A stretch of DNA of 15,302 nt, taken from UHGV virus genome UHGV-1740366; one strand, 5' to 3'. The position numbers are program-made. This DNA is from a virus. Shown piece by piece: positions 3,001 through 6,000 of the stretch (the stretch's first letter is position 1; each line of letters opens with the position of its first letter).

Positions 3001-6000
3001 GTAAACATCCGTCGATGACTGATGAACGGTCGCCAAATCAGCAGCATTGAGCCTTTGCTGTTTCCCTTCTTCTCCAGCCCTGTCGATGGTTCGATAAAAT
3101 TAATCCGTCCATCAGTGATAATGCGAACTTCGTCGACACTCTCCAGAGCCTTGCTGAACCATCCGACTGACATATCCTCTGGCACAAGCATAACTACCGT
3201 CTGTCGCTGTTGTATGCACTGCTCAGCGGCTTTTTCCACCCACGGCCTGATATTGCTGTACGGTGGGTTATTCCAGATTGCACCGTGGCTTATCCACTCA
3301 GAATTGAGCGCGTCGTCGGCCTCAGTTAGCCAGTGAGCACACAGAGCATTTTTGTCGCTCGCTGCCGAATCCAGCCAGAATCCAAACTCAATATCCAGTG
3401 CATCAAAAAGCCAAAGCGGCGTTTGCCAGCAGTCCTTGTCGTGTGCTGGCGTATTTGATTTAATTGTCACTCTACTTGCCTCTCCTTTAGATCCCGGTAC
3501 TCGCAATTATCAGGAATAGTTAGTCGTAATCCCTTCTGATGCGCCCACTGGTCAATATCGGTCAGATACTTGTGCATATCTCCAATATCAAGCTGCCGTG
3601 TTGATTTAACGCATCGTGTAATATTAAAAATCGTCACCCTTTTTGCCGGACAATATATATCTTTCAGCCACTCATGAACCTCTTCCGGTGTAAAACTTTC
3701 ACCAGAAACAGCGGATAATTGCGCGGCTATTTCTGCATTCCACACCCACATCAGATTGTTTTGTGACAATGTACGCTTCTCACGGTACTCAGATATTTTG
3801 ATTCGCCAGCGCTTGCCGGTAGAAAGGATTTGTTTCAGAACTAACCAGAATTGTGATTTATTGGTTTCGTGCAGAATGAAATCATTCATCATCAGTCATC
3901 AAATCTAATTGCTGGATAATTCTGTCACACTGAAAATCATTATCGATTTTAACCAACCGACGAAGAACACGGTCACGCGGATAGCTCCGTGGCTTAGGGG
4001 CGCTTTTCTGTCTCTCGTCAGTAGGAAGTCTGGAAGCAGACCAGTACCGCTTTGCACGGCCAATGTTCTCCTGAAAGTCGGCGCGGACAAGCTCAGCTAT
4101 CGTACTCATTTCTTAAAACCTCCTCAAACGCATTCTGACGCATTTTTCATTCTCGCTGCTTATTGGCGTACCTTGCACGCGTTTACCTCACTACAGAGCG
4201 ATTGTGATACCTTAAAAGCGATTTATTGAAGTGATATTTGCTTAATCGAAATTCTTTTCTTTGATTCCTGCGGCCCTGATGGCTTTCATTACTGCAATTA
4301 CCGTTTTGTCACGCCCATCCTCATAACCCATCGCATAAGCACCTTCTTCACCATCTTTCCAAAAGTCGTCATTCGATTCGGGCCAGTCGATATCCAGTTC
4401 AATAGCTGCTCGTGATGCCTGCCATATCACCCAGGCAAACTCTTTTAATTCATCGTCTTCTGTAAACTGGCTTTTGTCTTTTGACCACCATTCTTCAAAC
4501 TGCTTTCTTGATTCGTCCATCGATACTTACCCTCAGTTCAACTCACAAAACGCCACGCCATTTTTGCTACAGCGACAGGCATAACACCGATAATCACCCA
4601 CAGGAAAATGCTACCGAAAAGCACACCCACCAGGTCTTTACCTTCGCCTACCAACCGGACAAAACTGCTGGCAACAACAATGAACGTCGCCACCATCCAC
4701 ATAGCACCGAGAATCCTCAATGCAGAGAAAATTAACTCAGCCACAATTTACCCTCCCCCAAATAAAAAGGCCTGCGATTACCAGCAGGCCTTTATCTTTT
4801 TTTAACACGCTTTCGAGTCCTTTTAGATTTTTCCTTAAGATATTCCGCAAGTTTATCCTCATCATTATTAAATTGAGATAAAAGCTCATGCTCGCAATTA
4901 AGTGCTTTACTCGCATAAGTTCCATATAGTTTCTTTCTTGCTAGTGCTGCTATGAATGCTGCATCTTCTTTGCTATCGAAATACCCTAACGATATTGTCT
5001 TATTTTTATAACCAACATAAGACTTCCACCTGCCAGTTGTCTTATCCCAAGACACTCCAATCGCACCGGATGTGTTTAACCTATTCTCTACAATGTTTCT
5101 TGCATTCTGCTCCTCTGTTGCCAGTCTTAGATTTGAAATCCTATTGTCAAGTCTGTTCCCATTTACATGATCAATAAACTTAGGAGGCCATTTTTTGTAT
5201 ACATAGAACCAAGCAAGTCTATGCGCATAATACAAAACATTATTTATGCTAATGCATATATAACCACCACTAACACCTCCAGCAATACTACCTTTTACTC
5301 TTACTACTGAATTTGTTTTTAGCCATTTAAATATTCCTGTTTCTGAGTCATATGATAATGTTGACAGAAGCTCATCGTGATCAATTAGTTTTTTTATTCG
5401 CATAAAGAATATACTTAATAATATATACAGTAAGAACCATTAGTAACGATAACCCTGCTATCAGCTCAGTGATGTAGATGGTCATTTAATACTCCGTCAC
5501 GTTTTCCTGTCGCCACGCCTCGTCATATTCCGATTTCTGCATATTGGCGATGTAGCTATATGGCGATCCTGATTCAAGTTGCAGGAACTGGTGCGATTGC
5601 TCGTCAAGGAACAACGGGACACCACCTTCCCAACCTTCGCCGTTACGTTGTTTTTCAAGCATCAAAACAGATGCCGGAGATGCCAGTAGCTGTTCGTCCT
5701 TCTCTGACATCTTTTCACCACTCTGAACTCTCTGTAACGCTCTCTCGCGAGCCTTGTTACGCCAGATGATGAAAAGGTTGTCTGTCAGGTCTGTTATCGC
5801 TCCAGAGCCTTTTACGTCCATTTTCCCGGTTGGTTTTTCTTCGCTGTCTCCTTTTCGCGAGTGAGTAACGAGAATGACGTGGGAGTTTGTTTTATTTTTG
5901 AAGTCACATATCGAGTCAACAAACGCCTTCTGCCCGTTATAGTCATCGTCGCCTATGCCACATTTCATCAGGCTGTCGATGATGAATAACTGGATGCCGT

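Follow-up and report, generated by a model that had tools for sequence, protein, structure and literature searches.

What is an AT-rich endonuclease gene doing at the joint between the replication genes and the nin genes of a lambdoid prophage? This question is raised by the virus genome UHGV-1740366, of which we analysed a stretch of 15,302 nucleotides, hereafter the window, that represents the early region of a lambdoid prophage. On its minus strand, the window carries 662 bp of inserted DNA (4792-5453) with a gene for an HNH(HNN)-AP2 protein of 203 amino acids (4792-5403). A preliminary description of the window, made from the sequence alone, had regarded this region as a horizontally acquired, free-standing HNH-AP2 cassette. 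We consider that it is probably a free-standing homing endonuclease gene of the HNN-AP2 class, in which an I-HmuI-like His-Me finger is followed by an AP2 domain, and that its home is ninA/tR2, the site of the first nin gene and of an intrinsic terminator.

Boundaries and composition of the insert

The boundaries and the target site were defined by alignment with relatives that do not have the gene, as the preliminary description had proposed. In pairwise BLAST, window positions 4753-4791 corresponded to 2501-2539 of phage mEp043 (L002), and window positions 5454-5900 corresponded to 2537-2983 of the same phage. Because mEp043 aligns up to both junctions, the insert extends from 4792 to 5453, and not from 4761 to 5485 as first assigned. 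Lambda, Sf101 and F451 were the other gene-less relatives defining the boundaries. Each junction is ambiguous by the 3 nt AGG, or by up to 8 nt when the imperfect 8-bp repeat bordering the insert, ATAGCAGG ... ATAAAAGG, is counted; the target there reads ATAACAGG. The spacing was 663 in 20 of the 21 complete copies, indicating that the length of the insert is constant.

The upstream neighbour, a primase-helicase (Toprim_2/DnaB_C-like, 626 aa; 5486-7366, minus strand), lies outside the element and is 97.8% identical to gp55 of mEp043, after which an intact ninA follows. The same primase-helicase without the HNH gene was found in mEp043, in Sf101 and at the loci L030, L096, L101, L103, L105 and L111, and a megablast of 4400-5900 against phage records added APC_JM3.2, from which the cassette is absent.

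In terms of base composition, the GC fraction is 0.346 for the HNH ORF, in agreement with the figure of about 35% given earlier, and 0.337 for the insert as a whole. The lowest-GC stretch of 662 nt in the whole window begins at 4791, and the minimum elsewhere is 0.376. The flanks had been put at 50-55% GC, which holds for the primase-helicase (0.507) but is a little high on the nin side, where the 68-aa ORF has 0.488 and the 92-aa ORF 0.434.

The interrupted gene ninA and the terminator tR2

The uninterrupted site is a 26-codon ORF, MTIYITELVTGLLVIAGLFIWGRGKS, whose second half is formed by the terminator hairpin. Lambda carries the same ninA sequence between ren and ninB, where lambda RefSeq has no annotation for it, and the annotation of Sf101 names the uninterrupted ORF NinA. 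In lambda, 30 bp separate the NinA AUG from tR2 and a further 16 bp separate tR2 from the NinA stop codon, and experiments have shown the start site of NinA to be 'not weak' (PMC4824070). In both lambda and P22, ninA is the first nin gene (PMC8022706). The lambda ninA/tR2 sequence (40,568-40,648) equals both arms of the window's insert save for a few synonymous or conservative changes, but ninA is whole in lambda and split in the window. Taken together, the empty-site ORF, the comparison with lambda and Sf101 and the published position of tR2 place the insertion within ninA, a conserved gene of 26 aa, after codon 12 and ahead of the 5' arm (foot) of the tR2 hairpin; they also show that the mini-ORF upstream of the HNH gene is chimeric and the terminator native. 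Accordingly, the cassette is inserted and free-standing as first described, but its site is within the first nin gene rather than between the replication and nin modules.

On the one hand, the 5' part of native ninA (5454-5485, minus strand) forms the left homology arm, which, from the comparison of filled and empty sites, carries GCA (Ala10). This arm opens the chimeric NinA' ORF of 34 aa (5381-5485, minus strand), which reads MTIYITELIAGLSLLMVLTVYIIKYILYANKKTN, compared with MTIYITELVTGLLVIAGLFIWGRGKS at the empty site. Its first 32 nt are native lambdoid DNA, its codons 1-12 are those of native ninA, and its codons 13-34 are encoded by the insert. The ORF starts immediately behind the primase-helicase stop codon (TAAATG), and its 3' end shares 23 nt with the start of the HNH gene. 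The hydrophobic mini-ORF that had been noted as a bridge between the two genes is thus present, as a chimera of NinA and insert codons. The insert-encoded tail was also considered as a diverged NinA homologue, which would place the boundary further to the right, and was set aside, as the similarity by eye past 'GL' was unconvincing.

On the other hand, the 3' remnant of native ninA (GLLVIAGLFIWGR...; 4737-4791, minus strand), which is identical with lambda 40,598-40,640, includes tR2 and directly follows the HNH stop codon, the NinA tail having been replaced. A terminator scan detected the tR2 hairpin (4766-4793) on both strands, with a U-tract at 4756-4765 on the minus strand. The hairpin has a perfect 10-bp stem with 6 G-C pairs, an 8-nt loop and T-runs on both strands, the plus-strand run arising because it is the complement of the A-rich final Lys/Arg codons of the HNH gene. 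A bidirectional terminator right after the HNH gene had been described, and such a hairpin exists, with a stem of 10 bp instead of 8; however, it is not insert DNA but the native tR2 of lambda, which is present in empty sites too and is not cargo. The terminal bases of the insert rebuild the foot of the stem, and the fold is kept: the stem measures 8 bp at empty sites and 10 bp at filled ones, and both versions fold well.

Some further observations concern this locus. Codons 1-5 of ninA were left free in the search pattern, and in lambda (L005 1069-1149) and the 123 empty sites listed their variants were mostly synonymous third-position changes (ACC/ACT/ACA, ATC/ATT/ATA), together with conservative T-to-A and I-to-V replacements. 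This pattern suggests that the NinA peptide itself is under selection. In F451-type phages (Stx2a_F451, L003 2565-2834), an extra ORF of 270 nt with no known function is located between the primase-helicase stop and the ninA start (compare window 5485/5486), which gives the joint another variable slot. At the right junctions of L014 and L016, point mutations in the tR2 stem (GCAGGTC and GTAGGCC) and a shorter U-tract are followed by unrelated downstream DNA, and tR2 may be weakened in these two loci.

The HNH-AP2 protein

Both profiles that had been suggested for the protein, HNH_3 and AP2, were searched for and both matched. HNH_3 (PF13392) gave an E-value of 8.7e-16 and 57.7 bits against a cut-off of 24.8, with residues 58-102 covering the whole profile; AP2 (PF00847) gave an E-value of 1e-7, with a score slightly under its cut-off, which is weighed below. 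The precomputed Pfam entry of a 99%-identical cluster representative includes PF00847, and PHROG 99, 'HNH endonuclease', was matched at 1e-71. In an alignment of 50 sequences, H61, R62, L63, A64, W65, P73, D78, H79, N87, R88, N91, R93 and N103 are invariant, and N100 is conserved in at least 90%. D78-H79, N91 and N100 align with D74-H75, N87 and N96 of I-HmuI, in which the catalytic and metal-binding roles of residues have reportedly been assigned by Shen et al. 2004. Judged from this alignment, the predicted active site (D-H ... N ... N) is intact.

Because a sequence search of the PDB gave marginal matches only (WRI1 with E 0.0015, I-HmuI with E 0.32), a comparison of folds was needed. The AF2 model has a pLDDT of 88.7 and shows the finger elements E76-79, E92-95 and H97-101, followed by the AP2 elements E117-120, E125-132, E135-142 and H145-163, a three-stranded sheet packed on one helix. 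Foldseek aligned the model with I-HmuI (1u3e_M) at probability 1.0 and E 0.017 over 109 columns. Its AP2 part was matched to TEM1 (7et5) with an rmsd of 1.1 A over 48 residues, and to ERF1 (1gcc) with an rmsd of 1.4 A. The modelled fold is therefore an I-HmuI-like N-terminal sheet with a beta-beta-alpha metal finger, and then a canonical AP2 domain. A basic helical tail of about 37 aa follows at the C-terminus, and most homologues do not have it.

Among known systems, the intron-encoded HNH nicking homing endonuclease I-HmuI of Bacillus phage SPO1 (PDB 1U3E) shares the N-terminal beta region and the His-Me finger with the window protein, with marginal similarity in sequence. The two proteins differ in that I-HmuI is intron-encoded and ends in a helix-turn-helix, whereas the window protein is free-standing and ends in AP2 and the basic tail. 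Another related class is that of the free-standing HNN-AP2 phage endonucleases (Xp10/OP1/Xop411, T5, T1 and RB16/RB43; the class of Magnani et al. 2004), for which the boxes HRLAW, WP, DH, DNR, NLR and EN have been described (PMC2248197). Like the window protein, these proteins have the boxes listed, lack CxxC zinc dyads and carry AP2 on the C-terminal side of the nuclease, and their genes resemble the window gene in their sporadic occurrence and decaying copies. On the other hand, no conserved insertion site was found for those of the Xanthomonas phages (PMC2248197), whereas the present cassette occupies the single ninA/tR2 site in 27 of 27 loci.

Among the homologues of the protein, 521 member sequences make up a single tight cluster in which identity is 98% or more; the next is a single match of 62%, which is a chimera, and the rest are at 54% or below. 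Together with the lowest GC content in the window, this distance of the next relatives, apart from the one chimera, points to a foreign origin of the insert. The horizontal acquisition proposed at the outset is likewise supported by the two profile matches, by the relatives without the gene and by its presence in a minority of genomes. Within the cluster, 20 intact copies representing 8 haplotypes, a small sample, showed 8 synonymous and 9 non-synonymous differences, giving a pN/pS of about 0.31, which suggests that the gene is under selective constraint. Degraded copies also occur (L017, L028, which is truncated, H57, H91 and H92).

Two A7 runs, at 5389-5395 and 4798-4804, correspond to HNH codons 3-5 and 199-201. 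In L017, an indel of 1 nt in the 5' run shifts the frame and leaves a product of 7 aa. The -1 frame at the 3' run reads into the ninA remnant, and a programmed -1 frameshift fusing HNH to that remnant was considered and rejected; the run is interrupted (AAAAAC) in about half of the copies, and the arrangement is probably meaningless.

Distribution and allele linkage

Of the 50,697 phage records, 19 contain the 662-bp insert, in each case with an identity of 98% or more. It is also present in 126 of 5,426 complete E. coli genomes, about 2%, where it occupies 138 places with up to 3 per genome. The E. coli copies are annotated 'HNH endonuclease', and a few are split or truncated. For the uninterrupted ninA/tR2 site, the count is 2,923 places, spread over about 2,000 E. 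coli genomes (about 37%) and often several to a genome. Filled genomes thus number 126 against about 2,000 with an empty site, and the gene is far from being a constant feature of its relatives at this locus.

The same cassette is present in Escherichia phage HK022 (HK022_56/57), PA28, where it is labelled 'homing endonuclease', SH2026Stx1, Stx2 phage 1717 and Stx2a_WGPS4/6, as well as in the RefSeq E. coli 'HNH endonuclease' genes. These copies show 98-99.8% nucleotide identity with the window over the 662 bp, the same ninA/tR2 junctions and the same 34-aa upstream ORF, but their upstream replication gene varies (a DnaB-type helicase, ren, or a primase-helicase as in the window). In the megablast, HK022, SH2026Stx1, PA28 and Stx2 phages carried the cassette (98% identity) downstream of differing replication genes. 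The change G106E is private to the window copy. The RefSeq record of HK022 leaves the HNH gene wholly unannotated.

A set of junctions was assembled from pattern scans of IMG/VR and previously fetched loci, mostly IMG/VR contigs, and contained 27 filled and at least 123 empty sites. The junctions are identical in the 27 filled loci, giving one precise insertion point. Filled sites stand behind 7 of the 8 upstream gene classes and before 7 of the 11 downstream classes. All 27 read TAGCAGG, and 122 of the 123 empty sites listed read TAACAGG; that is, GCA (Ala10), located 5 nt from the junction, is present in every filled site and in 1 of the 123 listed empty sites, the others having ACA. The single empty ninA with GCA is L057 (about 1678-1730; IMG/VR 648276656_000002). 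To the left of the junction it resembles filled Stx-type phages, with 97% identity across the adjoining 1,532 nt, and to the right it resembles the window (98%). L057 may represent a precise loss of the endonuclease gene, or an ancestral or resistant allele.

A natural chimera was observed at L150 (5918-6520; Logan SRR10380363 contig). The left junction and the first 66 HNH codons are as in the window; the remainder is a different HNH-AP2 gene (about 40% identity) that abuts rusA, and the locus lacks NinA', tR2 and the nin genes as far as rusA. From its sequence, L150 looks like a nin-type deletion by recombination of two HNH paralogues at the HRLAWF box. The small HNH gene beside rusA of mEp043 was considered as the donor of the 3' half of this chimera (P0004), and the comparison was negative. 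When the donor of this half was sought by a DNA search, rusA of Salmonella phages gave the only matches.

Expression of the gene

No coding-strand promoter-like site was found in the scan, whose only 3 hits were all on the plus strand and at chance level. The HNH ATG is not preceded by a Shine-Dalgarno sequence, whereas GGAG stands 6 nt before the ATG of ninA'. Considering these three points, we infer transcription from pR and coupling to ninA': the HNH gene would be transcribed along with the replication genes, and its translation is probably coupled to the strong ninA start, the ninA' frame running 20 nt beyond the HNH ATG. The HNH stop codon abuts the tR2 stem, and strong repression of tR2 has been reported for translated stop codons situated a few bp ahead of it (PMC4824070). 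Since these two facts come together, HNH translation could, speculatively, modulate read-through of tR2.

Proposed homing and alternative explanations

The homing cycle that we propose begins with an element that brings neither promoter nor Shine-Dalgarno sequence nor terminator with it. On insertion it keeps tR2 by rebuilding the hairpin foot, and it exchanges the NinA tail for an insert-encoded hydrophobic one. Early in infection or induction, the protein would nick or cut the uninterrupted ninA/tR2 of co-infecting phages or co-resident prophages, and recombinational repair from the filled allele would copy both the 662 bp and the neighbouring Ala10 marker. Marker exclusion between co-infecting phages, which had been suggested earlier, may be one outcome. 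The domains and fold, the exact empty and filled alleles, the sporadic presence, the same junctions across contexts and the linked GCA are all consistent with homing. Selective constraint together with some degraded copies is also the pattern as expected in a homing cycle.

Several points weigh against this explanation. The AP2 score of 32.6 bits is 0.7 bit short of the gathering cut-off of 33.3. In the literature, we found no paper on the gene and no cleavage or homing data on the HNH protein. Among species-representative genomes, the exact junction sequence occurs in Escherichia (E. coli) only, although Salmonella phages share the flanks of the insert, so that the spread is limited. The linked Ala10 is an indirect trace of co-conversion only. 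The conserved arms of 32 and 39 bp make a classic mosaic joint, at which passive transfer of the cassette by recombination of the Red or Sak4 type could produce the same distribution. Finally, the copies of the insert diverge by about 1-2%, as their flanks do, which gives no clock evidence for a spread more recent than that of the flanks.

The last two points lead to passive carriage, the main rival, which we regard as fairly unlikely. According to this explanation, a single old illegitimate insertion in ninA is now spread by ordinary homologous recombination at ninA/tR2, and the nuclease is off-target or inactive. The similar divergence of insert and flanks is as it would predict. Moreover, thousands of lambdoid genomes share the conserved 71-bp flank, which sits at a module boundary with reshuffling of the genes on either side even where the insert is absent; the window itself encodes recombination functions, namely a Sak4-like single-strand annealing protein (SSAP), a single-stranded DNA-binding protein (SSB) and NinB; and the HNN-AP2 genes of Xanthomonas phages have been argued to move without a conserved target (PMC2248197). 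However, the intact catalytic residues and the pN/pS argue for a maintained activity, arms of this length are poor recombination substrates unless stimulated by a break, and the insert, though rare overall, occurs in almost all context classes.

A domesticated weapon appears improbable. Here the nuclease would mainly help its carrier by cutting competing lambdoid phages or prophages at ninA/tR2, in the manner of marker exclusion and inter-phage competition. The abundance of the target, found in about 37% of complete E. coli genomes and often in several copies, would suit such a role, as would purifying selection and a position in the early pR operon, which would have the protein made while competitors replicate. 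A weak PADLOC match is to the generic 'homing endonuclease' model only. Nevertheless, one cut yields both outcomes, and sequence data cannot separate the weapon from homing, whereas presence in about 2% of genomes with some decayed copies fits a selfish element better than a beneficial gene. Because the gene lies downstream of cro and cII in the repressed pR operon, it would be silent in the lysogen, and a defence role there is unlikely.

It is very unlikely that the gene is a moron transcribed on its own from the prophage, or a packaging HNH like HK97 gp74 associated with terminase: its atypical composition is that of morons, and HNH proteins are known as packaging factors in HK97-like phages, but own promoter and terminator, which define a moron in the Hendrix/Juhala sense, are not found here, as there is no coding-strand promoter-like site and the terminator is the host phage's tR2, while the gene belongs to the early-right operon, at a great distance from any terminase, and encodes an AP2 and I-HmuI-like architecture unlike the small gp74-type HNH.

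Significance of the ninA/tR2 site

The gene itself is ordinary, since many records already label it an HNH or homing endonuclease and its class is well described (PMC2248197). Our literature search found no paper naming ninA/tR2 as the site of this gene. Accordingly, the only increment is a small one, the exact boundaries and the mapping to ninA/tR2 of a gene labelled merely 'HNH endonuclease', and its practical value is small. If the enzyme cuts lambda tR2/ninA, it would provide an easy homing system in the best-known phage, and it would be a candidate contributor to recombination among Shiga-toxin prophages.

A stronger proposal, which we consider doubtful, is that breaks at ninA/tR2, the most conserved lambdoid linker and the replication-nin joint, are repaired with co-conversion of the flanks and so directly drive module exchange among lambdoid and Shiga-toxin phages and co-resident prophages. 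With L150 as the example, HNH paralogues could moreover delete the nin region between them. The element has perhaps evolved to be harmless at this site, in that it would rebuild tR2, supply a replacement hydrophobic NinA tail and borrow the ninA start for translational coupling.

Neighbouring genes

Upstream of the primase-helicase, the pR operon contains an O-like initiator (7474-8271), cII (8434-8733) and cro (8872-9132), all on the minus strand. On the 3' side of the insert, the nin region continues on the same strand with the 68-aa ORF, the 92-aa ORF, DUF7301, NinB, Dam, NinG, a NinI-like phosphatase, Q and holin. The pL side is on the plus strand, with cI (9178-9885) followed by N, cIII/kil, the Sak4-like annealase, SSB and Abc2.

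Two plus-strand ORFs, 9994-10329 and 10329-11012, are located between cI and N, which is the rexAB position of lambda. The former (111 aa) had no match in Pfam, PHROGs or PADLOC, and the latter (227 aa) belongs to phrog_14825, of unknown function, with a weak coiled-coil match. Both are low in GC (0.37-0.41), and the pair may be an exclusion or defence pair expressed by the prophage. Directly 3' of N, a plus-strand gene (11856-12539) encodes a 227-aa protein with a full-length match to Pfam Nmad5 ('nucleotide modification associated domain 5', E 1e-70).

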